Shown: positions 318 to 20,271 of the stretch, one piece after another | Layout: every line of letters begins with the position of its first letter | How positions within the stretch are numbered: position 1 is the stretch's first letter | Source of the DNA: a virus | Lineage: Duplodnaviria; Heunggongvirae; Uroviricota; Caudoviricetes | IMG/VR virus record: IMGVR_UViG_2534681697_000013 | Length of the DNA stretch: 20,597 nucleotides | Strand: one strand, 5' to 3' | Position numbers and translations under genes: made by a program | The notes under the pieces: model-generated | The model's database searches: none | Seen by the model: the letters and a program-made list of their open reading frames with translations, nothing else | Told to the model about the DNA's origin: nothing

Positions 318-3298
<2,981 letters not shown>

Positions 3299-3374
3299 AA
3301 CCCTTGCTGCGTCTGGAATGTCGTTTTCCATGCTTTTGATGACCGTTCATCACCCTTCCAGTTTTTCGCGGTTT

Positions 3375-3428
3375 TGTGTATTGCAATGTGTATTGCAAAT
3401 TGGCGATCGGGATGGGTGTGTATTGCAA
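3375..3428 (+). repeat. Three direct copies of TGTGTATTGCAA (3375..3386, 3387..3398, 3417..3428); candidate integrase arm-type sites
   Basis: Exact 12-mers between the left junction and the int start; two more copies sit just inside the right junction. Confidence 0.55.
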
Positions 3429-3446
3429 ATCTCTTGAGGGCTTTTA

Positions 3447-4688
3447 ATGGCTATTGAAAACAAACTCAGTGACAAACTGTTAAAGAGTCTTGTCGGAAAA
3501 CGGCAGGACAAACAAAAAACAATAGCGGATGGGCGCGGGTTGTCTGTGCGTGTAAGCATGGTTGGGGGGATCAGCTTTGTTTTTTACTATCGTCTTGGTG
3601 GCAGGGAATCCCCTCCGGTATGGCTTACACTTGGTCGCTATCCTGACATGTCTCTTGCAACGGCCAGGCGCATGCGTGATCAGTGCCGTGAATGGCTGGC
3701 TGAAAATCTGGACCCCCGCAGGCAAATAAAACTTGCTGCCGAAAAAACTATGCAACCAGTGACCGTAAGGGATGCGCTGTTTTACTGGTACGACAATCAC
3801 GCCACAACAGCCAGAAAAGAGCATGAATATTTAATAAAACGATTTGAAAAGCATATCTTCCCCTATATCGGTGATATGGCTATAGAACAGTGCAAATTAC
3901 ACACATGGCTTACCGTCTTTGACAGGATCAAAAAAAATGCGCCTGTTATGTCTGGTGCAATTTTTCTTGATATCAAACAGGCGTTGCGTTTTTGTCGCGT
4001 CAGGCAATACATCGCGTGCGATCCCTTTGGAGATATTAACGTAAGTTATGTCGGGCGCTCATCCGGTATAAGGGATCGCGTTCTTAATATCAATGAAACC
4101 GCTGATGTATGGTCTTATGCTTACGGTAATAATTTGCTAACTCTGTCATCAATATATAACCGAAGAATAATGGTTATCTGCTTGGTGTTTGGTTGCCGAC
4201 AGCAGGAGGCGAGGCTATCCACCTGGGACGAATGGGATTTAAAAAACTGGGTATGGACAGTCCCAAAAGAGCACAGCAAAAACAAGGAGGCTATAGTAAG
4301 GCCTGTTCCTGACGGAATAAAACAATGGATCGTTAATCTTTACGCAGAAACAAAAAATCGCGGTTATGTTGTCGGTTGTGCTTTGCAAAGGGCGACAATA
4401 ACAGGGGCTGCAAACAGAATATGCAGGCGTCTTGGTCATGATACTAATGGCTTGTGGTGCATACATGATTTCAGGCGCACATTTTCCACTACGCTTAATG
4501 ATATGGGGGCGGATCCTTATATTGTCGAACTTCTTTTAGGTCATAAAGTGAAAGGGGTTGCTGGTGTTTACAATAAAAGCAGGCATATAAAGAAAAAACT
4601 TGAGGTGCTTAATATGTGGGTTAATTACCTTAATACGATAGCAGGATTTAACAACAACGTTATCGAGCTTAATAAAGAGGTGGTGTGA
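3447..4688 (+). CDS. int: Tyrosine recombinase / integrase (P4-type), 413 aa
   Basis: ORF with upstream GAGGG; C-terminal HDFRRTF...LLGHK...GVAGVYNKS is the tyrosine recombinase catalytic region. AT-richer than the flanking lambda genes. Confidence 0.92.
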   Translation: MAIENKLSDKLLKSLVGKRQDKQKTIADGRGLSVRVSMVGGISFVFYYRLGGRESPPVWLTLGRYPDMSLATARRMRDQCREWLAENLDPRRQIKLAAEKTMQPVTVRDALFYWYDNHATTARKEHEYLIKRFEKHIFPYIGDMAIEQCKLHTWLTVFDRIKKNAPVMSGAIFLDIKQALRFCRVRQYIACDPFGDINVSYVGRSSGIRDRVLNINETADVWSYAYGNNLLTLSSIYNRRIMVICLVFGCRQQEARLSTWDEWDLKNWVWTVPKEHSKNKEAIVRPVPDGIKQWIVNLYAETKNRGYVVGCALQRATITGAANRICRRLGHDTNGLWCIHDFRRTFSTTLNDMGADPYIVELLLGHKVKGVAGVYNKSRHIKKKLEVLNMWVNYLNTIAGFNNNVIELNKEVV

Positions 4689-4689
4689 T

Positions 4690-4947
4690 ATGGCAATTTA
4701 TTCTCTTGTTGATGAAAACGATTTGCGCACAATGAAGGACATTGATCGGTTCATTCGTGAAAAAGAGTGCATAGCACTTACCACGCTGGCAAACTCAACA
4801 CGCTGGAAAATGGAGCAGGCAGGTAAATTCCCGCGACGTATCAAGATCGGTGAACGTGCTGCAGGGTATCGACTTTCAGAGGTTCAGGCATGGATCCGTG
4901 GTGAGTGGCATCCTGGATGGAAACCTGGAAAAACAAAACAGCAATAA
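4690..4947 (+). CDS. alpA: AlpA-family wHTH regulator / excisionase-like protein, 85 aa
   Basis: Starts 2 nt after int stop; motif IALTTLANSTRWKMEQAGKFPRRIKIGERAAGYRLSEVQAWI matches the AlpA family. Confidence 0.8.
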   Translation: MAIYSLVDENDLRTMKDIDRFIREKECIALTTLANSTRWKMEQAGKFPRRIKIGERAAGYRLSEVQAWIRGEWHPGWKPGKTKQQ

Positions 4948-4960
4948 CCAGTAAATAATG

Positions 4961-4983
4961 CCCCTCATCACGAGGGGTTTTTT
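4961..4983 (+). terminator. Intrinsic terminator after alpA
   Basis: Stem CCCCTC / GAGGGG with loop ATCAC, followed by TTTTTT. Confidence 0.7.
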
Positions 4984-5003
4984 GTCTATAAGGTAAAAAC
5001 GCG

Positions 5004-5582
5004 ATGAATAAAAATATTGCCGTGACGGGCAAGGGGTACGCTCGTCCAGTGAAAAAATTCTGCGATATTCGTGATCTCGTCGTTCTGCGCTTTGATAGTG
5101 TGAACGTTCGTGTGGTGTATCTGAACGGCGATCCGTGGTTTGTTGCAAAAGATGTTTGTGCTGCGCTGGAACTAACCAATTCGCGTACGGCGTTGCAGAT
5201 GCTTGATGATGATGAAAAGGGAGTAAATTTAACTTACACCCCAGGAGGAAATCAGAATATGAGAATTATCTCTGAGTCAGGTTTCTACAAACTAATAGCC
5301 CGCAGCCGCAAAGCAACGACGCCTGGCACATTTGCTCATCGTTTCAGTAACTGGGTATTCAGAAATGTGATACCAGGTATCAGAAAAACGGGGACTTATG
5401 GTATCCCGTGGGGTGCATTACAGGATTTTTCCCGCCGTAAAGAGCAATATCAAATAAGTGCCAGCGAGAAGGGGAGGGAGCTACAGGCATGTAAGCGCAA
5501 AAAGCGTGAGCTGGAGGAAGAAGAAAAAACGCTGATACGTGAATATCAGCCTGAGTTTTACTTTGGTAACCGCATTCAGTGA
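5004..5582 (+). CDS. Bro-N domain protein (antirepressor-like), 192 aa
   Basis: N-terminus VVYLNGDPWFVAKDVCAALELTNSRTALQMLDDDEKG...GGNQNMRIISESGFYKLIARSRKA matches the Bro-N family; C-terminus is a charged coiled-coil-like tail. Confidence 0.78.
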   Translation: MNKNIAVTGKGYARPVKKFCDIRDLVVLRFDSVNVRVVYLNGDPWFVAKDVCAALELTNSRTALQMLDDDEKGVNLTYTPGGNQNMRIISESGFYKLIARSRKATTPGTFAHRFSNWVFRNVIPGIRKTGTYGIPWGALQDFSRRKEQYQISASEKGRELQACKRKKRELEEEEKTLIREYQPEFYFGNRIQ

Positions 5583-5591
5583 CAAAACAAA

Positions 5592-5612
5592 GGCGACCGC
5601 AAAAGGGTCGCC
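5592..5612. terminator. Hairpin between convergent genes (possible bidirectional terminator)
   Basis: Stem GGCGACC / GGTCGCC, loop GCAAAAG. T-rich tract only on the minus-strand side; none on the plus side. Confidence 0.5.
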
Positions 5613-5678
5613 AGTGGGAACAAGGGAAAACAAAAGCATCACCAACAATGCCACATTTGCGGCTGGTGGGCAATGTGA

Positions 5679-5858
5679 TCAGTCAGATTTGGTTCGTTCC
5701 AAGGTTTGCAACGAGAGCTTTTTCCTGTGCTCTTTAAGGAATTTCTCAAGAGCAAACGAACAAGGTGCGAATCTTTCTGATTCATGTTCATGCGCTATAT
5801 TTTTGCGTCGTCTCTTACGAGTTGGTGATGGTGTTTTGGTTGATTCTGTGTCGCTCAT
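5679..5858 (-). CDS. Small basic hypothetical protein, 59 aa (below the ORF-track size cutoff)
   Basis: Minus ATG at 5858 to TGA at 5679 encodes MSDTESTKTPSPTRKRRRKNIAHEHESERFAPCSFALEKFLKEHRKKLSLQTLERTKSD; weak AGGA upstream; directly downstream of the 101-aa minus ORF. Confidence 0.3.
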   Translation of the reverse strand: MSDTESTKTPSPTRKRRRKNIAHEHESERFAPCSFALEKFLKEHRKKLSLQTLERTKSD

Positions 5859-5915
5859 GGTGCTGTCCTGTAAAGCAATGCGCCTGCGTTCCTCAAACTA
5901 TGGCGCTGATATTGG

Positions 5916-6221
5916 CTATTCATGCTCTTTGACCTTGCGTCGCTGGAGTTCTTCACGCGCGACGGTGACGAGTTGCCCGATCTCCTCGGCTGCTTTGATG
6001 CCGATTTGTTCGACCTTAGCCAGGGCATCCAGTGACGACACAAGGGGATTTTCTCCGCTGCCTTCTGCTTGGCGGCGGGCTATTTCTCCGCGCATGGCGG
6101 TTACGATAAATCCGGCATTGCTTTCACCGTCCAGCTTAACGGATTCCATCCCTTGCATAACATCTAGTGGGACTCTGACAGTTGTCAGTTGTGATTTTGC
6201 GTTTTTGTTAGCCGTTGCCAT
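5916..6221 (-). CDS. Hypothetical protein, 101 aa; possible ribbon-helix-helix-type regulator
   Basis: AGGAG 8 nt upstream of ATG; N-terminal QLTTVRVPLDVMQGMESVK resembles a beta-strand plus helix start. Transcribed divergently from the operator region. Function is inferred. Confidence 0.5.
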   Translation of the reverse strand: MATANKNAKSQLTTVRVPLDVMQGMESVKLDGESNAGFIVTAMRGEIARRQAEGSGENPLVSSLDALAKVEQIGIKAAEEIGQLVTVAREELQRRKVKEHE

Positions 6222-6242
6222 TTCTGAAACTCCTAATCATCG

Positions 6243-6320
6243 GTGTGTTTCAGTATACACAAAAAAAGAAATACAAAAAGCCTTGACGTGTGTTTCATGC
6301 GCTCATAACATGAAACACAC
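6243..6320. promoter_or_regulatory. Divergent promoter region with operator-like repeats (candidate genetic switch)
   Basis: Plus strand: TTGACG (6283..6288), 17 bp, TAACAT (6306..6311). Perfect 12-bp inverted repeat GTGTGTTTCATG (6288..6299) / CATGAAACACAC (6309..6320), plus a third half-site GTGTGTTTCA at 6243..6252 over a minus-strand TATACT -10 candidate (6252..6257). Confidence 0.5.
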
Positions 6321-6348
6321 CGAAAGGATTGTTGAAATACAAAGAGCA

Positions 6349-6382
6349 ACGCCCCGCAGTGCTGGGAACACATACGGGGCGT
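6349..6382 (+). other. Stem-loop in the 5' leader of the rightward operon
   Basis: 8-bp stem ACGCCCCG / CGGGGCGT with an 18-nt loop, no T tract after it; lies between the promoter and the first ORF. Confidence 0.35.
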
Positions 6383-6411
6383 CTAACCAACAACGTAAAC
6401 TAGGAGCCGTT

Positions 6412-6609
6412 ATGGTTGCTGTAAATCATATACCACACCTTGTACACACACAAACGGCCTTTGTGTGGCGTTTTCTGGCACTGAGTGCCGGAGAATCTCA
6501 AATCATCCACGTAACCGCCTGGACGGAACGCGAAGCGCGTAGCCGTTGCCCGTCCGGTTGTGTTGCTGTATTCGCTGCAAAAATCCGCCAGGGAGTGAGT
6601 CATGCTTAA
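6412..6609 (+). CDS. Hypothetical small protein, 65 aa
   Basis: AGGAG 5 nt upstream of ATG 6412; stop overlaps the next ORF start at 6602. It is the C-terminal frame of the otherwise implausible track ORF 5539..6609. Confidence 0.4.
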   Translation: MVAVNHIPHLVHTQTAFVWRFLALSAGESQIIHVTAWTEREARSRCPSGCVAVFAAKIRQGVSHA

Positions 6610-6787
6610 AACCTTCCGTGTATTTGCCCGAGCTGTTAACCCAATAGGCCACACAATTGGTATCGCTCAGAATGTGAAGGCTGTTAATGTTCAGACGGCT
6701 ATTGCTGCGGTGAGAAGCGAATCATCAGAATATGGCTTATCACAAGTCATTATTTCAGCAGTGTATGAATTAAAAGAGGTGCATTAA
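6602..6787 (+). CDS. Hypothetical protein, 61 aa
   Basis: GGAGTGAG upstream of ATG; overlapping, translationally coupled operon layout. Confidence 0.45.
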   Translation: MLKTFRVFARAVNPIGHTIGIAQNVKAVNVQTAIAAVRSESSEYGLSQVIISAVYELKEVH

Positions 6788-6978
6788 TGCAGGAAATTAC
6801 ATTACACGAAGCCGCTGAACGTGCGCACCAGACAGAAATTATTTGCCGCCTTCTTGAGGTATACCCGAACAAAATTACAGATGCTGATATATCCGCACTG
6901 GCGAGCCTACTGGCGCGTCTTTCGGGAAGTGTCGCTAGTTTTTTGATTGAGGAAGAAAGTAAGCTGGTGGGGGATTAA
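6787..6978 (+). CDS. Hypothetical protein, 63 aa
   Basis: AGAGGTG upstream of ATG; start overlaps the preceding ORF end. Confidence 0.45.
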   Translation: MQEITLHEAAERAHQTEIICRLLEVYPNKITDADISALASLLARLSGSVASFLIEEESKLVGD

Positions 6979-7200
6979 ATGAATACAGAACGGGAAGTCT
7001 TTTTTAAATTGTTAGCATGTGCAGAAAGTTCATTAACTTTAAATAATTCAGCAAAAGCAATATTAAATATGTGGCTTGATTGCATAAATGACAATGAAGA
7101 TGCAAATATTGCTTATGGCCTGTTGTCACTTATTGATGAATCAGCAGAAAAACTCAATGACGCAATAAATAGTGCCCTGCTATCAAATAAGTCGAGTTAA
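6979..7200 (+). CDS. Hypothetical protein, 73 aa (AT-rich gene)
   Basis: Starts right after the previous stop with GGGGGA upstream; markedly lower GC than its neighbours. Confidence 0.5.
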   Translation: MNTEREVFFKLLACAESSLTLNNSAKAILNMWLDCINDNEDANIAYGLLSLIDESAEKLNDAINSALLSNKSS

Positions 7201-7217
7201 GTCGAGGAATAAATAAT

Positions 7218-7517
7218 ATGGAAATGAAAAATTCTGGCTTTATTGCCAGCGGCCCCGCTCGACCTGAATTTATGAACGGCGATATTTACCGCGATAAATA
7301 CGGCGGCACGGTAACGATTAAAGGCGTGGCAGAACGGCGCATCACTTACCGCCGTGAGGGGTATAGCTATGACTGCGTGATGCCTGTTTATCAGTTCCGG
7401 CGTGATTTTTCCCTGGTATATGCCGCACCCCGCAGTAAGCCCATCAGCAGGGAAAAAGCGTGGGGAAATATCCAGAAAATGAAAACCATGATTAACGGAT
7501 TCAGAGGTAAAAAATGA
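7218..7517 (+). CDS. Hypothetical protein, 99 aa
   Basis: GAGGAA upstream of ATG; stop overlaps the primase start. Confidence 0.55.
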   Translation: MEMKNSGFIASGPARPEFMNGDIYRDKYGGTVTIKGVAERRITYRREGYSYDCVMPVYQFRRDFSLVYAAPRSKPISREKAWGNIQKMKTMINGFRGKK

Positions 7518-9268
7518 AACTGGCACCGAACGTAAAACAGCAGTCACGCGGCATAAAACACAAAGGAACAGAAGTAATTATTTTTGCGGGTAGTGATGCC
7601 TGGGCACACGCGAAACAATGGCAGGAACATGATGCGCGTATGGCCGGAGATAATGAGCCTCCTGTGTGGCTTGGGGAGCAGCAGCTATCCGAACTGGATA
7701 ATCTGCAAATTGTGCCGGAAGGCCGAAAATCAGCACGCATATACAGGGCCGGATATCTTGCGCCTGTAATGATAAAGGCGATTGGTCAGAAGCTGGCGGC
7801 AGCAGGCGTACAGGATGCAAATTTTTATCCTGAGGGTATGCACGGCCAGGAGGTGCAGAACTGGCGCGAATATCTGGCCCGTGAACGCCAGAATCTTTCT
7901 GATGGTCTGGTCATTGAGCTTCCGGTAAAGCAAAAGGCGCAACTTTCGCAGATGGCGGACAGTGAGCGCGCGCAGTTGCTTGCCGATCGCTTTGATGGCG
8001 TTTGCGTACATCCTGAAAGTGAAATCGTTCACGTATGGCGCGGCGGGGTATGGTGTCCGGTCAGCACAATGGAACTTAGCCGCGAAATGGTGGCGATCTA
8101 TTCAGAGCACAGGGCCACTTTCAGCAAGCGCGTAATCAATAACGCCGTGGAAGCGTTAAAAGTTATTGCCGAACCAATGGGCGAGCCGTCTGGCGATTTG
8201 CTGCCGTTCGCCAATGGTGCGCTTGACCTGAAAACGGGGGAATTTTCCCCGCACACGCCGGAGAACTGGATCACCACGCACAACGGCATTGAGTACACGC
8301 CACCAGCACCAGGGGAGAACATCCGCGATAACGCGCCAAACTTTCATAAATGGCTTGAGCACGCAGCCGGAAAAGACCCGCGCAAGATGATGCGTATATG
8401 TGCCGCGCTGTACATGATTATGGCGAACCGGTACGACTGGCAGATGTTTATTGAGGCCACCGGAGACGGCGGGAGCGGTAAAAGTACATTCACACACATA
8501 GCCAGCCTTCTGGCAGGGAAACAGAACACGGTAAGCGCTGAAATGACATCGCTTGATGATGCTGGTGGACGTGCGCAGGTTGTCGGGAGTCGTCTTATCG
8601 TCCTGGCTGACCAGCCGAAATATACAGGCGAAGGAACGGGCATCAAGAAAATCACAGGCGGCGACCCCGTGGAAATTAACCCGAAATATGAAAAGCGTTT
8701 CACGGCGGTAATCAGGGCGGTGGTGCTGGCGACCAACAACAACCCGATGATATTCACCGAACGGGCCGGAGGTGTGGCACGTCGTCGCGTGATTTTCCGT
8801 TTCGACAATATCGTCAGTGAGGCCGAAAAAGACAGGGAGCTACCGGAAAAGATTGCGGCTGAAATCCCCGTTATTATCCGCCGATTGCTGGCGAACTTTA
8901 CCGACCCTGAGAAGGCACGGGCTTTACTACTGGAACAGCGTGACGGTGATGAAGCACTGGCAATAAAGCAACAGACGGATCCGGTTATTGAGTTTTGCCA
9001 GTTCCTGAATTTTCTGGAGGAAGCGCGCGGCCTGATGATGGGTGGCGGTGGTGATTCAGTGAAGTACACGACCAGGAACAGCCTTTACCGCGTCTATCTG
9101 GCGTTTATGGCATACGCGGGCAGGAGCAAACCGCTAAACGTGGCTGAGTTCAGCAAGGCCATGAAGCCAGCGGCGAAAGTTTACGGGCATGAATATATTA
9201 CGCGAAAAGTTAAGGGAGTAACGCAGACCAACGCAATTACAACAGACGATTGCGACGCGTTTTTATAA
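7514..9268 (+). CDS. Primase-helicase (P4 alpha-type), 584 aa
   Basis: Walker A GDGGSGKST and downstream helicase-like region; last gene of the small-ORF operon and followed directly by iterons. Confidence 0.88.
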   Translation: MKLAPNVKQQSRGIKHKGTEVIIFAGSDAWAHAKQWQEHDARMAGDNEPPVWLGEQQLSELDNLQIVPEGRKSARIYRAGYLAPVMIKAIGQKLAAAGVQDANFYPEGMHGQEVQNWREYLARERQNLSDGLVIELPVKQKAQLSQMADSERAQLLADRFDGVCVHPESEIVHVWRGGVWCPVSTMELSREMVAIYSEHRATFSKRVINNAVEALKVIAEPMGEPSGDLLPFANGALDLKTGEFSPHTPENWITTHNGIEYTPPAPGENIRDNAPNFHKWLEHAAGKDPRKMMRICAALYMIMANRYDWQMFIEATGDGGSGKSTFTHIASLLAGKQNTVSAEMTSLDDAGGRAQVVGSRLIVLADQPKYTGEGTGIKKITGGDPVEINPKYEKRFTAVIRAVVLATNNNPMIFTERAGGVARRRVIFRFDNIVSEAEKDRELPEKIAAEIPVIIRRLLANFTDPEKARALLLEQRDGDEALAIKQQTDPVIEFCQFLNFLEEARGLMMGGGGDSVKYTTRNSLYRVYLAFMAYAGRSKPLNVAEFSKAMKPAAKVYGHEYITRKVKGVTQTNAITTDDCDAFL

Positions 9269-9281
9269 TTTTTTGTAAAAG

Positions 9282-9503
9282 CCATCTACCCCATCTACCT
9301 GAACGAAATAAACGCATATTATTCAACATGATAAGTGGGTATAGGGCTAGGTAGAAGGCTAATAAAAGCTCTCTACCTCTTCTACCTGATTTTATCAGTT
9401 TCAGGTAGCAGGGTAGACGGCAGGTAGAGGAGTCAAAAAAGCTATCTACCCGCTGAAAGCGGCGCCATTACTGACATGATGAGCATTCGGGTAGATGGGT
9501 AGA
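9282..9503. repeat. Iteron cluster with AT-rich core; candidate replication origin
   Basis: (C)CATCTACC-type repeats on the plus strand at 9284, 9293, 9371, 9381, 9444 and inverted GGTAGA copies at 9350, 9404, 9412, 9423, 9490, 9498; terminal blocks CCATCTACCCCATCTACC and GGGTAGATGGGTAGAGG mirror each other; AT-rich stretch around 9300..9345. Confidence 0.6.
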
Positions 9504-9553
9504 GGGGGGGAGGCACAACTAAAAACTTTTTAAACGAGGGGGGGTGAAAATAA

Positions 9554-9868
9554 ATGCGCATACATAAAAATCACTTAACAAACATGCCAGCCGAAAACAT
9601 GAATCAGGGGCGACAAATGACCAAAATTCGCAGAGACAGAACACAGGCAAAATATAAAGCGTTAGACATGACAGAGCTTTCCTTAAAGGTGGCAATCAAA
9701 GCGATAGACCACCACACACGGGCAGGATACGCGAAGGAACATCCCGACCTGATAAGCGCATTCATGACCACAGCAGCGGCAAACTTTGCCACGCTGACAG
9801 AACGGGAGATTGCCGAAGCGGAACAGGTGACAACCATCAATGTTAAAACCGGAGAGCAGACAGCATGA
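9554..9868 (+). CDS. Hypothetical protein, 104 aa (true start may be a downstream Met)
   Basis: ORF after a G-rich Shine-Dalgarno-like tract; stop overlaps the SSB-like gene start (ATGA). Confidence 0.5.
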   Translation: MRIHKNHLTNMPAENMNQGRQMTKIRRDRTQAKYKALDMTELSLKVAIKAIDHHTRAGYAKEHPDLISAFMTTAAANFATLTEREIAEAEQVTTINVKTGEQTA

Positions 9869-10287
9869 CAGCACAGATAGCGGCTTACGGGCGGCTGGTG
9901 GCTGACCCGCAGTTAAAGACCACCAGCAAAGGGACACAAATGGCGATGGCGAGTATGGCGGTTCCCCTGCCGTGCAGCCAGGCAGATGACGGAACGGCGA
10001 CGATGTGGTTATCCGTCCTGGCGTTTGGCAGACAGGCCGACGCACTGGCAAAACACCACAAAGGCGAACTGGTGAGCGTGGCGGGTAACATGCAGGTAAG
10101 CCAGTGGACAGGCCAGAACGGCGAAACGCGGCGGGGCTGGCAGGTTATCGCAGACAGCGTAATCAGTGCGCGAACGGCGCGACCGGGCGGCAAAAAAGGC
10201 CAGCAGGGGCAGGCCACTGACGCACTGAACAGGGCAAAACAACAGTCGGGGAATGATGATCCGTACGGCGATAATATACCGTTTTAA
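9865..10287 (+). CDS. ssb: Single-stranded DNA-binding protein-like, 140 aa
   Basis: OB-fold-like core WLSVLAFGRQADALAKHHKGELVSVAGNMQVSQWTGQNGETRRGWQVIADSV, Gly/Gln-rich linker and a C-terminal ...DDPYGDNIPF tail resembling the SSB DDDIPF tip. Confidence 0.7.
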   Translation: MTAQIAAYGRLVADPQLKTTSKGTQMAMASMAVPLPCSQADDGTATMWLSVLAFGRQADALAKHHKGELVSVAGNMQVSQWTGQNGETRRGWQVIADSVISARTARPGGKKGQQGQATDALNRAKQQSGNDDPYGDNIPF

Positions 10288-10304
10288 ATTCTGCAAACAA
10301 AAAG

Positions 10305-10333
10305 ATGCCGGAAAAAAATAGATTTTCCGGCAT
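10305..10333. terminator. Strong hairpin after the SSB-like gene (putative terminator)
   Basis: Perfect 11-bp stem ATGCCGGAAAA / TTTTCCGGCAT with a 7-nt loop; no clear T tract after it, so terminator function is uncertain. Confidence 0.4.
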
Positions 10334-10498
10334 GCTACATAAATCCCGACCAAAGGAAGTAAATACATTAACACGAATTATCAGCACTGAAGTTGTTACG
10401 GCATATTTTATACAACATTGCACTTGGTTGCATGTGTTCGCATAGCAGACATCGGTAATAGAATATATTCACAATTATTTGTAATGAATGTAAAGAGG

Positions 10499-11545
10499 AT
10501 GAGTATGGTTGATTTATATTCGCCTACACAGCTTGTGCAGGTGGCTAATGCTGAAGATGTGCAAAAAAATTAAATGCGTTGTTTACCAGTTTGTTTTTCA
10601 CTCGCTCGGTAATGTTTGAATCGAGAGACATTATTCTTGATACGATCGACGATCCAAATATCCCGATCGCGGCGTTTTGCTCTCCTATGGTGGGCAGTAA
10701 AGTTTCACGAGATGAGGGATACGAATCAAAAACAATTCGTCCAGGTTATATGAAGCCGAAAAGCAGCATTGATCCAAATAAGTTAGCTGTGCAGCCCTGC
10801 TGGTGTGTCACCTGAGCAATACAATGCTTTTGGGGCGCGTAATATTAAAGTTAAACAGGCGATTGTAAATCAGGCTAAAGCTATTCGTGCACGTATTGAA
10901 TGGCTTGCTGTTCAGGCAATCACAACGGGGAAAAATATCATTGAGGGCGATGGTATTGAACGTTATGAGCTGGACTGGAATATAAAACCACAAAATATCA
11001 TCACTCAGTCTGGCGGTACTGAGTGGTCAGGTAAGGATAAAGAAACTTTTGATCCAAATGATGATATTGAGAGCTACGCAGAATTTAGTGAGGGCGTCAC
11101 TAATATCATCATTATGGGTGGTAATGTATGGAAGAAATACCGTTCATTCAGAGCGATAAAAGAGGCTTTGGATACCCGTCGTGGTTCTAATTCCGAACTG
11201 GAAACGGCCCTTAAAGACCTTGGTGATTCGGTGAGTTTTAAAGGGTATATGGGCGATGTTGCGATTGTTGTTTACAGCGGGCGTTATACCGACGAGGACG
11301 GAACAGAAAAACATTTCCTTGATCCTGATTTGATGGTGCTTGGCAATACGGCTCTTCAGGGGATTGTCGCCTATGGCGGTATTCAGGATCCGGAGCTAAT
11401 CCGAATGGGGCTGACTAAAGCCGAACTTGCACCGAAAAACTATATTGTGCCTGGTGATCCGGCTATTGAATATGTGCAGACACATTCAGCACCACAGCCA
11501 ATACCGGCCCGCATCAATCGTTTTGTTACCGTTCGCATTGGCTAA
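10499..11545 (+). pseudogene. Major capsid protein gene (lambda gpE-like), disrupted by two frameshifts
   Basis: Three consecutive frames each align with successive parts of gpE. First: MSMVDLYSPTQLVQVANAEDVQKN*, stopping at 10571. Second, to 10815: KKLNALFTSLFFTRSV...PGYMKPKSSIDPNKLAVQP. Third, 10805..11545: ...ITQSGGTEWSGKDKETFDPNDDIESY...DTRRGSNSELETALKDLG...GDVAIVVYSG.... The breaks sit in an A7 run (10563..10569) and a CCC run (10795..10797). Confidence 0.75.
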
Positions 11546-11554
11546 GGGGGAGCA

Positions 11555-11896
11555 ATGGCTACTCATTACACTGAACTCATGGCTGGCACTGAAGCACTGG
11601 TGACTACGCTGGGGATATTTTCAGCTAATAAAGGGGTAATTCCTGCATTTACGCCACTGATGCAGGAAGATGCAACAGGTGCACTGGTGGTATGGGATGG
11701 TTCGAGCGTAGGTAAAGCGGTTTATGTTTCCGCTGTACAAATCGACACCGCGAAAAAAACACAGGCTCAGGTCTATAAGACAGGTGTCTTAAATGTTGAT
11801 GCTCTGAACTGGCCTGAGTCTGTTAAAGAACTGTCAGTAAAGGTTGCAGCGTTTGTTGGCTCAGGTATTTCTGTTCAGCCGCTGGCTCGTGTGTAA
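11555..11896 (+). CDS. Head decoration protein (lambda gpD-like), 113 aa, apparently intact
   Basis: AAGGGGGA upstream of ATG. LVVWDGSSVGKAVYVSAV, VYKTGVLNVDALNWPE and AAFVGSGISV parallel the gpD motifs [34 protein letters not shown] and [10 protein letters not shown]. Confidence 0.72.
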   Translation: MATHYTELMAGTEALVTTLGIFSANKGVIPAFTPLMQEDATGALVVWDGSSVGKAVYVSAVQIDTAKKTQAQVYKTGVLNVDALNWPESVKELSVKVAAFVGSGISVQPLARV

Positions 11897-11907
11897 AGGG
11901 GGATACA

Positions 11908-12291
11908 ATGCAGAATGATTACAATGACCTTAAGCCAATTGCCGAAATGATGTACCCGAATCCAGCTGTAGAGGAATTAAAAGCTATCGCTGACAAAATG
12001 TGTTTAAGCGAGCGCCTTGTTGATATGAATCAGGTGATGGAAATTACAACCCTGAGTCGTCGTACACTGCTAAACCTTGAGGCTAGTGGAGAGTTCCCGG
12101 AGCGTGTGCAGGTTACGGAAGGGCGTAAGGCCTGGTATTTAAGTGAAGTGATCGACTGGATAAATAATATTCCTCGCGCTTCTGAATATTGCCGCGTACC
12201 TGTCCCAAAAAAGCCAGATGCGGCGCTATGCCTCAAGATTGAGCGTGTACGCCGCAATGCACGGGATGGTCGCTATAAGCTGATTGGTTGA
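11908..12291 (+). CDS. AlpA/MerR-type wHTH DNA-binding protein, 127 aa
   Basis: AGGGGGA upstream of ATG; motif MNQVMEITTLSRRTLLNLEASGEFPERVQVTEGRKAWYLSEVIDWI matches the AlpA family. Sits between the decoration gene and cos. Confidence 0.6.
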   Translation: MQNDYNDLKPIAEMMYPNPAVEELKAIADKMCLSERLVDMNQVMEITTLSRRTLLNLEASGEFPERVQVTEGRKAWYLSEVIDWINNIPRASEYCRVPVPKKPDAALCLKIERVRRNARDGRYKLIG

Positions 12292-12343
12292 TGAAATTAG
12301 GGCCCGCTCTGGCTGGCGGGTCCTTTCCGGTGATCCGGTAGGC

Positions 12344-12381
12344 TACGGGGCGGCGACCTCGCGGGTTTTCGCTATTTATGA
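12344..12381. other. cos site: lambda-type cosN (cohesive-end 12-mer GGGCGGCGACCT at 12348..12359)
   Basis: TACGGGGCGGCGACCTCGCGGGTTTTCGCTATTTATGA matches the lambda cosN region; downstream sequence up to the small terminase gene differs from lambda cosB. Confidence 0.75.
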
Positions 12382-12492
12382 GCCTTTTTCGGGTGCTGGT
12401 GGTGGTTTTGTTGTTCGCTCTATCTCTATGAATAAAAAGGAAAAGATAAAGCCAATACACCAACCTGAAACATTACTTAAGTGGGGATATTG

Positions 12493-13035
12493 ATGAAATC
12501 GCACCTGATGAACAAAAAAAACATGGCGCAAAGCTGCCGTGTAAGTGCGACAGCGTTCGACAAGTGGGGAGTGACTCCCGTTGAACGTAAAGGCCGCGAG
12601 GCGTTTTATGATGTTGCCAGCGTAATAGACAATCGGGTTAGCAATGCAATTAACCAGATTACAGACGACAAAGGCGAGATTGATGATGATGAACTCCTAC
12701 GAGTCAGGATCAGATTGCTGACAGCACAGGCAGAGGCGCAGGAGCTTAAAAACGAGCGCGAACGCGGCGACGTTATTGATACAGCGTTTTGTATATACGT
12801 GCTTTCAAAATTGGCGAGTCAGATTTCTTCAATCATGGACAGCCTGCCGCTTGCCATGACAAGGAAGTTTCCCGACATGAAGCCGTCTATGCTGGATGGA
12901 CTGAAAAAAGAAGTTATCAGAGCCTGTAACGCATGCGCAAAACTTGACGAAAACATACCGCTGATGCTGTCCGATTATCTGATGGAAACTGCCGGAAACG
13001 TACCGGATAAGTTGCAGCCGAATAAAGATAAGTAA
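12493..13035 (+). CDS. Terminase small subunit homologue (Nu1-like), about 180 aa; start could instead be 12481 (GTG) or 12508 (ATG)
   Basis: LLTAQAEAQELKNERERGDVIDTAFCIYVLSKLASQISSIMDSLPLAMTRKFPDMKPSMLDGLKKEVIRACNACAKLDENIPLMLSDYL parallels the Nu1 C-terminal half in this window; N-terminus MNKKNMAQ... parallels Nu1 MEVNKKQLA...; immediately downstream of cos. Confidence 0.8.
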   Translation: MKSHLMNKKNMAQSCRVSATAFDKWGVTPVERKGREAFYDVASVIDNRVSNAINQITDDKGEIDDDELLRVRIRLLTAQAEAQELKNERERGDVIDTAFCIYVLSKLASQISSIMDSLPLAMTRKFPDMKPSMLDGLKKEVIRACNACAKLDENIPLMLSDYLMETAGNVPDKLQPNKDK

Positions 13036-13046
13036 CGTAGTACGCT

Positions 13047-13328
13047 ATGACTGAATCCGAAATACTGCGATTAATCCGCCGTGCTTGTGGAATCAGCAAG
13101 CAGCATGACGAACAGGCCACGCAGCCGGACAGCGTGACCGCAGATAATTATGTGCGTGTAGTGGCTGAGGTGATGCGCCGTGACGGTATTGAGCTTAACG
13201 GCGTGGATATGCGCAACATACGAACAAGAGTCCTTGAGTTGCTGGCATATCGTCGCCGTTCTCAACAACGGAGGGAGAGCGCGAAAAATACTTACCAGTG
13301 GAAGAAGCCGGAACGATTGCGGCGGTAA
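13047..13328 (+). CDS. Hypothetical protein, 93 aa
   Basis: ORF 12 nt after the small terminase stop; no strong Shine-Dalgarno; function unknown. Confidence 0.45.
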   Translation: MTESEILRLIRRACGISKQHDEQATQPDSVTADNYVRVVAEVMRRDGIELNGVDMRNIRTRVLELLAYRRRSQQRRESAKNTYQWKKPERLRR

Positions 13329-13579
13329 CTTGCTGATATTCCCGATAACGCAAAATTGCGCTGGCTGACTTGTTGCATTGCAAAAAGTTAAGCAGGAAGG
13401 CACGGCCTGTAAGATGGGATGCAGTAAGTAGTTCAAGGCTACCTTGTGCTGGCACGCACAGTTAAGCCGTCGGTGCTGGATATCCCCCACTGGGGGAAAA
13501 GCTGGCTACATCCCTCACATCTGAGGACTGATAACGCGACATTGCGCTGGCTGGCAAAGTGCAAAATTGCACGATGGCC

Positions 13580-13726
13580 TAACCCATTGATTATTTCGAA
13601 AACCTGCAATGCAGGAAATCGGGGAAGTAAGCCTAAGCTATTGATTGTTTCGAAAACCCCCATTGGGGGATGTCGGGAAAGTAAGACTAACCCATTGATT
13701 CTTCCACAATCCTCAATTTGAGGAGG
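13580..13726. repeat. Tandem direct repeats of about 54 bp (2.5 copies), each with a short inverted repeat
   Basis: Units begin TAACCCATTGATTATTTCGAAAACC, TAAGCTATTGATTGTTTCGAAAACC and TAACCCATTGATTCTTCC; each contains a small palindrome (CTGCAATGCAG, CCCCCATTGGGGG, CCTCAATTTGAGG) and ends GG(G)AAGTAAG(C/A)C. Confidence 0.55.
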
Positions 13727-14041
13727 CCGGAACGTCTACATAGCTGCATCGCCGTAATGATGATTCAGCCCACCAGCCAAATCAGCACAGCAACGACAGA
13801 ATAGCCCGACACAGAAAAACCACGAATATGGGGTTTTTGTTATGACATGGTCATGATGACCACTCATACAAAACAGGTAAAGCCCACCAGCCTGATTAAA
13901 GGTTAACCGGAAAAAAGCCAGGTATCCAATCTCGATATGGGGATCCCTATATCGACATTAACGCCCACTAAAACTGTGCATATATGCATAGAAAAAGCAT
14001 CCACCAGCTTTATGACGGATGCCGCTCATCTTATAAATAAT

Positions 14042-14065
14042 CGTGTATTGCAGTGTGTATTGCGA
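14042..14065 (+). repeat. Two direct copies of (C/T)GTGTATTGC(A/G) (14042..14052, 14054..14065); candidate arm-type sites at the right end
   Basis: Same motif and orientation as the three copies upstream of int. Confidence 0.5.
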
Positions 14066-14137: not shown

Positions 14138-14145
14138 AAGGCGAT
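14138..14145. other. Right junction core (attR-like) AAGGCGAT
   Basis: Direct repeat of 3239..3246; portal-like sequence resumes in frame immediately after. Confidence 0.6.
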
Positions 14146-14917
14146 GTATGCCGCCACCATTGAGAGTGAGCTGGATACGCAGTCAGCGATGGATTTTATT
14201 CTGGGCGCGAACAGTAAGGAGCAGCGGGACAAGCTGACCGGCTGGATTGGTGAAATTGCCGCGTATTACGCCGCAGCACCGGTCCGTCTGGGAGGCGCAA
14301 AAGTGCCGCACCTGATGCCGGGGGACTCACTGAACCTGCAGACGGCTCAGGACACGGATAACGGCTACTCCGTGTTTGAGCAGTCACTGTTGCGGTATAT
14401 CGCTGCCGGGCTGGGTGTCTCGTATGAGCAGCTTTCCCGGAATTACGCCCAGATGAGCTACTCCACGGCACGGGCCAGTGCGAACGAGTCGTGGGCGTAC
14501 TTTATGGGGCGGCGAAAATTCGTCGCATCCCGTCAGGCGAGCCAGATGTTTCTGTGCTGGCTGGAAGAGGCCATCGTTCGCCGCGTGGTGACGTTACCTT
14601 CAAAAGCGCGTTTCAGCTTTCAGGAAGCCCGCAGCGCCTGGGGGAACTGTGACTGGATAGGCTCCGGTCGTATGGCCATCGATGGTCTGAAAGAAGTACA
14701 GGAAGCGGTGATGCTGATAGAAGCCGGACTGAGTACCTACGAGAAAGAGTGCGCAAAACGCGGTGACGACTATCAGGAAATTTTTGCCCAGCAGGTCCGT
14801 GAAACGATGGAGCGCCGTGCAGCCGGTCTTAAACCGCCCGCCTGGGCGGCTGCGGCATTTGAATCCGGACTGCGACAATCAACAGAGGAGGAGAAGAGTG
14901 ACAGCAGAGCTGCGTAA
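14138..14917 (+). pseudogene. B: Portal protein gpB, C-terminal part (portal reading frame resumes at 14146)
   Basis: Translation (KA)MYAATIESELDTQSAMDFILGANSKEQRDKLTGWIGEIAAYY...GLRQSTEEEKSDSRAA* is the portal C-terminus; the last 20 nt overlap the GTG start of C. Confidence 0.9.
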
Positions 14918-17634: not shown

Positions 17635-19098
17635 TTATTTTACAGACGAGAAGTTCCAGGGCAGCAGTTCATGCACTTGGTTCGACGGCCAGTCATTGAG
17701 CTTCTCGATCACTTCGCGCAACCAGTCCTCCGGCTCCACTTCGTTCTGTTTGCAGGTGACCAGCAGACTGTAGATGATCGCCGCACTTTCTCCTCCCTTG
17801 TCTGAGCCGAAAAAGAGATAATTTTTTCTTCCAACCGCCACCGATCGTAACGCGTTTTCACCGATGTTGTTGTCTATTTCCACCCAGCCGTCACGACAGA
17901 ACTCGTTCAGCGCATTCCAGTGATTCAGGATATAGTCGAACGCCTTCGCCATCTCCGCATGTTTCGACAGCGTTTCCCTCTGCAACTGTATCCAGTCGTA
18001 CAACGACTGCATCAACTGGACGCTTCTGGCTTTTCTGACTGCAAGCCGTTCCTCTGCCGGACTGCCACGTATCTCCGCTTCTATGTCGTATAACTCTGCT
18101 ATCCGTCTGAGCGCTTCCTGAGTCATTTCTGTCGGACGGCGCACATCCTCGTCATGGATTTTTCGGCGGGCGTGGGCCAGGCACCCGGCTTCCTTCACCC
18201 GGCCCGTTTCGTACAGTACGTTATAACCTGCATAGGCATCAGCCTGCAGTACGCCCTGATACTTTGCCAGGTGGAGCTGCGGATGTTCTCCTTTGCGATC
18301 TGCCGAATACGCGAACCAGACGGCTGCCGGCAGGGATGAACCCGCATTACGATCATCCCTGACGTATACCCACAGACGACCCGTTTTCGTCTTTCCGTTC
18401 CCCGGGGCCAGTACTTTCACCGGAGTGTCATCTGCGTGCACCTTTCCTGCCTCCAGAACATAGTCATTCAGCGCTATATACAGAGGACGGAGTTTGTCTG
18501 CCATTTCTGATACCCAGCGCACCATGGTATTACGGCTCAGCTCCACGACCTGTCGCGCGTATATTTCTGACTGGCGATATAAAGGGATATGTTCCATATA
18601 TTTGCTGACCAGGATCCGTGCAAGTAACCCTGCACTGGCATAACCGCGTTCGATCGGTTTAGGGGGAAGTGGTGCCTGAACGATGACATCACACCGGCTA
18701 CAGGCCAGTTTGGGACGTATGGTTTCGATAACTTTAAAGGCGGTATTAATGATATCCAGTTGCTCTGAGATTGTTTCCCCCATTTCTTTCAGAACACCTC
18801 CACAGGCCGGGCAACTGGTTTCAGCAGGCAGAAGGCGATGTGTCTCCCGGGGAAGTTCTGCCGGCAGCGGTTTTCGTGAAGATTTTCGTCCCGGGGATTC
18901 AGGCTTACTGGCGATCGGGTTTTCTGACGGGGGACTGGTGTCAGGTGAATCTGTGACTGACGATGCATCTTCCAGAAGATTTCTGGCTGTGTTCAGCCGG
19001 TTTTCCAGTTCCGACAGTCGTTTTTCTGCCTGTCGGATCTGATTTTCAAGCTTATGACGCTTTTTCTCTGAACTCTGGCCGAACAGCATACGACGCAA
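17635..19098 (-). CDS. tnpC: IS66-family transposase TnpC, 487 aa as an uninterrupted ORF
   Basis: ...[29 protein letters not shown]..., with Cys-rich CPACGG and CSRCD motifs. The expected N-terminal about 30 codons ([31 protein letters not shown]) lie in another frame upstream. Confidence 0.88.
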
Positions 19099-19252: not shown

Positions 19253-19600
19253 TTATATCCGGATGCCAGGCCGTTCTGTCCGTTTGGGATGTTGCCACGC
19301 GATCCCCTCCAGTAGCATGGATAACTGAGCTGGCGTCAGGTGCACTTTCCCTTCCCGGGTCACCGGCCAGACGAAGCGGCCCCGTTCCAGGCGTTTGGCG
19401 AACAGGCATAACCCGTCACGATCGGCCCACAGTATTTTCACCATTTTGCCACTACGGCCCCGGAAGACGAAGATATGCCCGGAGAACGGGTCATCTTTCA
19501 GCGTGTTCTGCACCTTCGAAGCCAGGCCATTGAAGCCACAACGCATATCTGTGATGCCAGCGATGATCCAGATTTTGGTACCGGTCGGCAGCGTTATCAT
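19253..19600 (-). CDS. tnpB: IS66-family TnpB (Orf2), 115 aa
   Basis: ...GHIFVFRGRSGKMVKILWADRDGLCLFAKRLERGRFVWP...LTPAQLSMLLEGIAWQ... is the IS66 Orf2 pattern. Confidence 0.88.
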   Translation of the reverse strand: MITLPTGTKIWIIAGITDMRCGFNGLASKVQNTLKDDPFSGHIFVFRGRSGKMVKILWADRDGLCLFAKRLERGRFVWPVTREGKVHLTPAQLSMLLEGIAWQHPKRTERPGIRI

Positions 19601-20271
19601 CGGATACCCCCTTTCATTTCGCGGATTAGCGCCCGTAACAGTTCCGGAGTGAGAGGGTCAAACAGTTTTACCACACCTGATTTAAGATGCAGCTCGCACC
19701 GTGGGACGTTTCCGGGAGCCCCCTCAGGGCGCTCATCATGCTTGTTACGCCAGAAGGGATTTGTAACTGGTCTGGTCGGCTCCGGCGTATCAGTCAGTGC
19801 CACCGGGACAGGCATGCATTCCTGTATGTCATCATCGCTCAGTAAGCCGTCCTCGTACTGGCTTTTCCATTTAAACAGCAGGTTATTATTGATATCGTGT
19901 TCTCTGGCGATCCGGGCAACAACAGCCCCAGGCTGTAACGCCTGCTTAGCCAGACGGACCTTAAATTCACGGCTATAGCTGGTTCGCCGTTCTTTTCGCC
20001 ATGAGCCTTCTCTGATTTGAGGCTCTGTTAATTCCTTCTTTCTGTTGGCATAAAGGATGGCGTCAAGTTGAGCGAATGAAACTGAATCGGGCAATGGCCA
20101 TGCGATACCGGATGCAAGAAATCGCTGAAAAAGCGTATGTATTGTGGAATGACTGAGACCCAGACGCTGAGCGATGGCCCGGATGGTCAGTTTATCTTCA
20201 AATCTTAAACGCAGGGCATCAGGCAAATAAGAACGGAAGCAGGGAATATCTTTTGTTGTCTGGGAATTCAT
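19597..20271 (-). CDS. tnpA: IS66-family TnpA-like protein (Orf1) with an N-terminal HTH-containing extension, 224 aa; true start uncertain
   Basis: ...RRTSYSREFKVRLAKQALQPGAVVARIAREHDINNNLLFKWKSQYEDG... is the IS66 Orf1 motif; the first about 90 residues (IRAIAQRLGLSHSTIHTLF...) look like an extra HTH domain. Confidence 0.75.
   Translation of the reverse strand: MNSQTTKDIPCFRSYLPDALRLRFEDKLTIRAIAQRLGLSHSTIHTLFQRFLASGIAWPLPDSVSFAQLDAILYANRKKELTEPQIREGSWRKERRTSYSREFKVRLAKQALQPGAVVARIAREHDINNNLLFKWKSQYEDGLLSDDDIQECMPVPVALTDTPEPTRPVTNPFWRNKHDERPEGAPGNVPRCELHLKSGVVKLFDPLTPELLRALIREMKGGIR

Follow-up and report, generated by a model that had tools for sequence, protein, structure and literature searches.

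The 20,597-nucleotide stretch of viral DNA (Caudoviricetes) recorded in IMG/VR as IMGVR_UViG_2534681697_000013, referred to here as the window, covers the head-gene region of a lambdoid prophage (terminase large subunit, gpW-like protein, portal, S49 protease and gpE-type capsid), and its portal gene is split by an island of 10,899 bp. Five copies of a short word, all in the same orientation, lie close to the two junctions of this island, and the question that the locus raises is what these repeats are and which protein reads them. The island is a helper-embedded phage-inducible chromosomal island (HE-PICI) of the site group B:Phage_portal_2:241, co-oriented in the lambdoid portal gene, and sequence comparison suggests that the five repeats are probably arm-type sites, to be bound by the tyrosine integrase (Int) of the satellite itself through its N-terminal domain.

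HE-PICIs were described by Tommasini, Mageeney and Williams (2023, NAR Genom Bioinform 5:lqad036; PMC10111431) as satellites located in, and co-oriented with, helper late genes, at 14 sites. The same paper reported a doubled motif, tgTGTATTGCantgTGTATTGCa, with two co-oriented copies per attP, placed 81 ± 2 bp upstream and 132 ± 2 bp downstream of its centre. That work already gives the motif and where it is placed, as well as the hypothesis of arm sites. Our analysis is mainly a confirmation that the window holds an HE-PICI with the canonical doubled attP motif, and its additions (a fifth site, a co-varying word with the same geometry and an argument based on the AlpA recognition helix) are modest.

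Five co-oriented repeats at the ends of the island

The window contains four exact copies of GTGTATTGCA, starting at 3376, 3388, 3418 and 14043, and a further copy, GTGTATTGCG at 14055-14064, that differs from them by one mismatch; all five are on the plus strand. An earlier reading of the letters alone (the sequence-only reading) had noticed five same-orientation repeats beside both junctions, and this is borne out, as is the layout it described: a tandem pair on the left, a third copy about 18 bp further on (the gap is 18-20 bp, depending on the unit length chosen) and a pair on the right, which ends 74 bp before the right junction core and has its mid-point about 85 bp inside. Named after their expected positions on the attP arms, the sites are:

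3376-3385 (+): P'1 half-site, GTGTATTGCA, found by word search and weight matrix and invariant in relatives
3388-3397 (+): P'2 half-site, GTGTATTGCA, at a 12-bp period from P'1
3418-3427 (+): P'3, the fifth copy, GTGTATTGCA, starting 30 bp after P'2 and ending 19 bp before the int start codon
14043-14052 (+): P1 half-site, GTGTATTGCA, found by word search, weight matrix and in relatives
14055-14064 (+): P2 half-site, GTGTATTGCG, with its single mismatch outside the TGTATTGC core

The four exact copies compare with 0.056 expected, and the maximum in 2000 first-order Markov simulations was two. When one mismatch is allowed, the five copies observed are less striking on their own, as the mean is 1.73 and 3 of 100 shuffles reach five. 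We also ran the weight-matrix scan that had been proposed as a check, with a 14-nt matrix built from the five copies: these score 18.3-22.6 bits, and the next best site in the 20.6 kb scores 13.2 bits. According to the word and matrix scans, GTGTATTGCA is found nowhere else in the island. The three ATTGCA-containing motifs that the sequence-only reading had offered as possible further sites do not belong to the family: the one at 13371-13385 scores 7.9 bits with two mismatches, and those at 13561-13571 and 10413-10424 score below 0 bits with four mismatches each. All three were rejected on matrix score and mismatch count, and the first two are part of a separate array of short palindromes described below. 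A reverse-strand TGTATTGC core was seen inside int (4004-4011, minus strand), 557 bp past its start, and it is kept in the relatives whose Int is 88% and 69% identical (L003:10558; L006:10558). It departs from the full 10-mer at either end of the word, and coding constraint is the probable reason why it is kept.

The junctions were set by aligning the uninterrupted portal gene of E. coli JS316 (L002), which gave an identity block, AAGGCGAT, of 8 bp that is imperfectly extended to 15 bp:

3239-3246 (+): attL core, AAGGCGAT, from alignment with the empty site, with an imperfect repeat to 3253 (AAGGCGATtTATGtC)
14138-14145 (+): attR core, AAGGCGAT, with 14138-14152 identical to the empty site

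The match to uninterrupted portal genes ends at about 3251. The empty portal site is seen in other E. coli genomes, and 53 complete E. coli genomes carry at least 80% of the island. The AAGGCGAT block was derived independently and is identical to the block 'aaggcgat' given for E. coli '...11.B_Phage_portal_2_241' elements in the supplement of PMC10111431. Furthermore, the published attL and attR match the window junctions where they were compared by eye. Given the uncertainty in where the centre and the motif edges are placed, the distances in the window are also consistent with the 81 ± 2 and 132 ± 2 bp of the paper.

Conservation and geometry in related elements

Relatives were obtained from a protein database and from exact-protein look-ups; an integrase-guided scan of genome contigs gave nothing confirmable. 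Seven were tabulated, with identity to the window Int and integration site:

Edwardsiella tarda: 88%, portal site
Serratia (remnant): 77%, portal site
Metagenomic element: 69%, portal site
Citrobacter: 55%, portal-227 site
E. coli: 54%, capsid E:80 site
Klebsiella: 51%, CLP-protease:110 site
E. coli: 49%, terminase site

The doubled word lies directly upstream of int in all seven, and every relative whose right end could be reached has a second pair there. Between genera the flanks diverge, but the copies do not differ by a letter. Absence of the repeats from related elements had been named beforehand as an outcome that would speak against arm-type sites, and in fact the word is kept in all seven.

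We then reconstructed attPs for portal-241, portal-227, capE-80 and CLP-protease-110 elements (Int 51-88% identical), and over about 300 bp of these sequences no long block other than the two doubled motifs is conserved. In the four integration-site groups, an invariant CAT in the core is preceded at 89-92 bp by the start of the P pair and followed at 142-143 bp by that of the P' pair, the distance from P to P' being 231-235 bp. An unbiased scan of IMG/VR for the doubled word returned 135 instances; in 45 of them an int of this clade follows 33-86 bp downstream, and in seven contigs two pairs on the same strand are separated by 9.8-11.6 kb, roughly the length of an island. The suggestion in the sequence-only reading that the repeats would form the arm-type sites of an attP has thus held as regards their placement on both arms, their fixed distances from the core, strictly kept in relatives at other integration sites whose Int is only 48-88% identical, and the presence of an arm domain in Int; it is from the comparison of proteins and sites, discussed below, that we infer the binder.

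Some other loci came up in these searches. The Serratia elements (L004:9780-12100; L005) are remnants that keep the 5' portal fragment, the three P' sites, int and alpA, and in which the right arm, the 3' portal fragment and all other island DNA have given way to unrelated chromosomal genes (an MFS transporter, type VI secretion). An unrelated AT-rich viral contig (L072:7252-7555) carries two doubled pairs of TGTATTGCA at a distance of 258 bp, together with an inverted copy; these repeats are intergenic and adjoin another kind of tyrosine integrase (Phage_int_SAM_5, lacking Arm-DNA-bind_3), which shows a weak local match to the window Int of 26% identity over 89 residues, and the locus looks like an un-integrated attP that coincidentally uses the same word. 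Finally, in three contigs (L068, L099 and L139), of which at least two bear a giant-virus (GVMAG) bin label, 12-bp units that contain the TGTATTGC core are arrayed head to tail, two to six in a row; these are unrelated simple tandem repeats caught by the pattern scan.

A variant word in hpt-site PICIs and a third P' site

The PICIs found at the chromosomal hpt site in E. coli, Salmonella and Enterobacter encode an Int 46-48% identical to that of the window. Their tandem pair is in the same place and likewise has a 12-bp period, but it consists of a different word, GGTGTATCA. In the E. coli hpt PICI the right arm is cCGTATATCActcGGTGTATCAct, and the distance from pair to pair is 233 bp, or 92 plus 141 bp from the aligned CAT. 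The GGTGTATCA word is also found directly upstream of related int genes in Xenorhabdus, Kluyvera, Serratia, Scandinavium, Yersinia and Photobacterium, and elements with this word overall have an Int 41-58% identical to the window Int. The doubled GGTGTATCA loci are:

L012:9957-9980
L018:13287-13310 (-)
L016, L020, L149, L153, L158, L159, L179 and L220

In the contig scan for this variant only matches directly upstream of an int were counted, because 16 specified bases in 596 Gb are expected to give hundreds of matches by chance. The hpt-site PICIs and their relatives served as the outgroup; the fis-site PICIs, the other outgroup of PMC10111431, lie outside the comparison. That paper does not mention the GGTGTATCA variant, whereas here it has identical geometry in the hpt-site PICIs and their relatives. 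As the GTGTATTGCA and GGTGTATCA words both occur in E. coli, their reader should be encoded by the element and not by the host.

The site sequence appears to track the lineage of the integrase arm domain, which is suggestive. Of the 34 distinct Int N-terminal domains from elements with the HE word, 32 could be scored, and all of these combine F44 with P-[IVL]-W at positions 57-59; seven of the eight from elements with the variant word have W44 and L-E-R. In a structural model of Int, these residues are in or at the edge of the beta-strands 42-48 and 58-65. It is quite possible, and we put it forward tentatively, that the doubled word is one allele of an 'arm code' in a wider clade of P4-like satellite integrases. 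These would share one attP architecture (pairs about 90 bp to the left and 142 bp to the right of the CAT, some 232 bp apart), with the word GTGTATTGCA in HE-PICIs and the word GGTGTATCA in the hpt-site PICIs and in relatives that extend to Photobacterium, the word being read by the beta-sheet residues 44 and 57-59, and a third P' site having been added in the portal-241 subclade.

This third site, P'3, is present without a changed letter and in the same register only in elements whose Int shares at least 69% identity with that of the window, a portal-241 subclade that comprises the window, the E. tarda, Serratia and metagenomic elements and seven viral contigs. The segment that holds it, 31-40 alignment columns long (34 in the window row), is an insertion that the other site groups lack, their int ATG coming about 23 bp after the pair. 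Within the subclade, P'1-P'2 coincides with an unbroken run of 21 invariant columns and P'3 with one of 13. PMC10111431 describes four half-sites and reports the motif as absent from other island types, whereas the window subclade has this fifth copy. P'3, which is specific to the portal-241 subclade, may tune int expression or directionality.

Candidate binders of the repeats

The N-terminus of Int matches the Pfam family Arm-DNA-bind_3 (PF13356) with E = 3e-17, and by sequence the protein matches the structures 3JU0 and 3JTZ. An AlphaFold2 model of Int (mean pLDDT 85.8) superimposes on 3JTZ and 3RMP with a TM-score of 0.87 and an rmsd of 1.4-1.5 Å, and on 3JU0 with an rmsd of 1.8 Å, and the full-length model matches the lambda Int complexes 1Z1G and 5J0N. 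We compared the domains of Int with AlpA, the product of the gene that follows int, across nine HE lineages that share the invariant word:

Int arm domain (1-95): mean identity 66%, 36 of 95 positions invariant
Int core-binding domain: mean identity 46%, 14 of 105 invariant
Int catalytic domain: mean identity 48%, 47 of 208 invariant
AlpA, whole protein: mean identity 48%, 12 of 73 invariant
AlpA putative recognition helix: mean identity 32%, 0 of 8 invariant

At least six putative AlpA helices are found (ANSTRWKM, GRRHRALL, PKSTRAFM, GASTRHYM, GRNHRYYL and SQAGLYRA). In a set of six elements, identity by domain was not enough to tell Int and AlpA apart, whereas the wider comparison of nine lineages was; it is the combination of a variable AlpA helix, a conserved Int arm domain and an invariant word that favours the arm domain of Int. 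Moreover, the word is confined to the att arms within the island, as would be expected of recombination sites more than of the operators of a transcription factor.

The repeats could instead be sites for the AlpA of the satellite, a Vis/Xis-like protein acting as directionality factor and/or activator of int, but we consider this unlikely. AlpA/Vis-family proteins bind repeats near int in P4-like elements. In addition, alpA comes directly after int in every HE-PICI examined, the type of AlpA differs between HE and hpt PICIs, and AlpA was named as a possible binder in PMC10111431. However, this explanation would require an invariant word to be read by those six or more putative helices without one invariant position, and in the L019/L036-type element the word is unchanged although both AlpA paralogues lack the common helix. 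The word is not present at other island promoters either. The sites are also spread over both arms, at distances that are fixed but asymmetric, and a known directionality factor usually binds a single arm. This is the case of TorI, whose sites are on attL only (PMC2951348).

A somewhat less probable explanation still is that another factor, either a different island or helper protein or a host protein of the IHF/Fis type, binds the repeats and shapes attP or regulates int. Intasomes formed on attP generally need bending proteins, which speaks for such a factor. 'Some unknown DNA binding protein' was also left possible in PMC10111431, but the word does not match the IHF consensus WATCAANNNNTTR, as that paper remarks too. 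Against a host protein, both words are found in one host species, E. coli, and the word follows the element; against a helper protein, the helper prophages vary widely among site groups while the word is constant. With regard to another island protein, the Serratia remnants have kept, besides the attL half-site, int and alpA as the only island genes together with the P' repeats.

The last alternative, chance or a non-functional duplication such as remnants of att duplication, could draw on the marginal excess of copies when one mismatch is allowed, but the excess of exact copies, their letter-perfect conservation across genera and the geometry fixed in four site groups effectively refute it, and we give it almost no weight.

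Proposed mechanism

If the repeats are arm sites of Int, circularisation of the satellite would put P1-P2 about 90 bp to the left and P'1-P'2 about 142 bp to the right of the crossover core, with P'3 30 bp further. By analogy with lambda Int and KplE1 IntS, each Int protomer would then hold a core half-site through its core-binding and catalytic domains and an arm site through its N-terminal domain, and this arm-core bridging would fold the attP of about 232 bp into an intasome. The intasome would recombine at the 8-bp AAGGCGAT, so that the satellite integrates in the portal gene, and excision would restore the gene. Excision after helper induction with restoration of the late gene has been observed experimentally for 11capE only (PMC10111431). 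Occupancy of the P' sites, which are immediately upstream of int, might also feed back on int and repress it.

Several points weigh against assigning the repeats to the Int arm domain and against this scheme. Those who described the motif left its binder open between the Int arm domain, AlpA and an unknown protein (PMC10111431), and our literature search found no binding or mutational data for the motif and no later paper on its binder. The recognition helix of AlpA is a putative one, assigned by analogy with the winged-helix excisionase fold, and the protein could read DNA mainly through its C-terminal wing region (RLSEVQAWI), which is more conserved. The correlation between the Int signature and the word is statistically weak, as it amounts to essentially one phylogenetic split. 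The arms of the window have no clear IHF site. Finally, no sigma-70-like promoter was found between the core and int, a promoter and terminator scan of 3200-3500 being empty, which makes int autoregulation speculative; int may be read from the helper late transcript instead.

Two observations concern other parts of these attPs. A perfect palindrome, TGATGAccgtTCATCA, lies at 3337-3352, between the core and the P' pair, and is kept in all four of the portal-241 members but not in other site groups; it is possibly the site of a dimeric protein, maybe the directionality factor. In the portal-227 and capE-80 attPs (L008, L009) a perfect reverse IHF consensus, YAANNNNTTGATW, is found about 60 bp to the right of the core, and its equivalent in the window (3297-3309, GAAACCCTTGCTG) is a degenerate match to IHF.

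The satellite and its neighbourhood

The genes that delimit the split portal gene and the left end of the island are:

292-2217: terminase large subunit, in the head region of the helper prophage
2417-3298 (+): 5' portal fragment (lambda gpB family), Pfam Phage_portal_2 profile positions 2-242 of 354
3447-4688 (+): int, tyrosine integrase of 413 aa, Pfam PF13356, PF22022 and PF00589
4690-4947 (+): alpA, AlpA/Vis-family winged-helix protein of 85 aa, Pfam PF05930, a presumed excision/regulatory factor
14138-14917 (+): 3' portal fragment, Phage_portal_2 profile positions 238-354

Portal coding in the 5' fragment stops at the core, near 3246-3253, and the open reading frame (ORF) continues into island DNA; an identical copy of the 3' fragment is annotated in RefSeq as 'phage portal protein, missing N-terminus'. 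The terminase, gpW, protease and capsid genes flank the split gene on the same strand. Within the island the order is int, alpA, Bro-N, a D5_N/DUF5906 primase, SSB, a gpE-like capsid, a gpD-like decoration protein, a second AlpA-like protein and a Nu1-like small terminase subunit (terS). The island thus shows the HE-PICI succession of int-alpA, a Bro zone, a replication zone with primase and captured late genes, together with the doubled TGTATTGC at a fixed distance on both attP arms. We considered that the repeats might be iterons of a replication origin and rejected this, as they lie at fixed distances from the core across different targets and not by the primase.

Just upstream of the Nu1-like small terminase gene (12481-13035) we noticed GGGCGGCGACCTCGCGGGTTTTCGCTATTTATGA at 12348-12381, which we take to be nearly identical to the lambda left cohesive end (cosN), in which case the satellite would have its own lambda-type cos site. 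The non-coding right end of the island (13344-13738) is an array of short palindromes with a folding z-score of -3.75. It contains two copies of GATAACGCnAnATTGCGCTGGCTG 186 bp apart, each followed by a palindrome, and three tandem 54-nt units (13577-13738) whose central hairpins, CCTGCAaTGCAGG, CCCCCAtTGGGGG and CCTCAAtTTGAGG, vary in sequence with the pairing kept. A comparable array is found at the right end of the hpt PICI. A search of the island against Rfam at E <= 0.1 gave no match, this array included.

Downstream of the helper major capsid gene the window has an IS66-family transposase (17635-19098, minus strand) and a helix-turn-helix transposase-like ORF (19597-20271, minus strand), whereas an identical island in NZ_CP138217.1 is followed by normal FI/head-tail and tail genes, suggesting that the helper prophage of the window is further disrupted and may be defective.

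Relation to known systems and implications

The element in the window and the HE-PICIs of PMC10111431 have the same word, the same doubled and co-oriented layout, the same element type and the same identity block. Among better-studied systems, lambda Int (arm sites P1, P2 and P'1, P'2, P'3; PDB 1Z1G, 5J0N) is likewise heterobivalent, with an N-terminal arm domain and non-core repeats on both arms, and the window subclade has the 2 + 3 arrangement of lambda. They differ in the subfamily of the arm domain, which in the window is the P4-like Arm-DNA-bind_3/DUF4102, as well as in the word, in the spacing (12-bp tandem pairs in the window) and in the distances.

The KplE1 (CPS-53) element, with IntS and TorI, is similar in that int is transcribed away from attL and the P' sites are upstream of int. 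In KplE1, IntS and the directionality factor repress int, and the arm sites overlap the int upstream region (Panis et al. 2010, PMC2951348). Its word is different, its att site is the argW tRNA gene, and its TorI sites have been mapped, whereas the sites in the window are predicted from sequence. The arm domains of the HPI and HAI7 integrases (3JTZ, 3RMP, 3JU0) have the same fold and family as residues ~11-103 of the window Int, with 32-34% identity and an rmsd of 1.4-1.8 Å, but these integrases belong to tRNA-targeting genomic islands and have other arm sequences. A paper on the ICEKp1 int promoter contains nothing on arm sites.

The fifth site, the co-varying word and the AlpA-helix argument turn the open binder question of the 2023 paper into a simple, directly testable one. 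If the arm code proposed above is true, the attP arms of the clade and its specificity residues would be predictable, and could be re-engineered, from sequence alone. Furthermore, known arm sites help to delimit such satellites automatically and to understand the timing of the excision that restores the portal gene.

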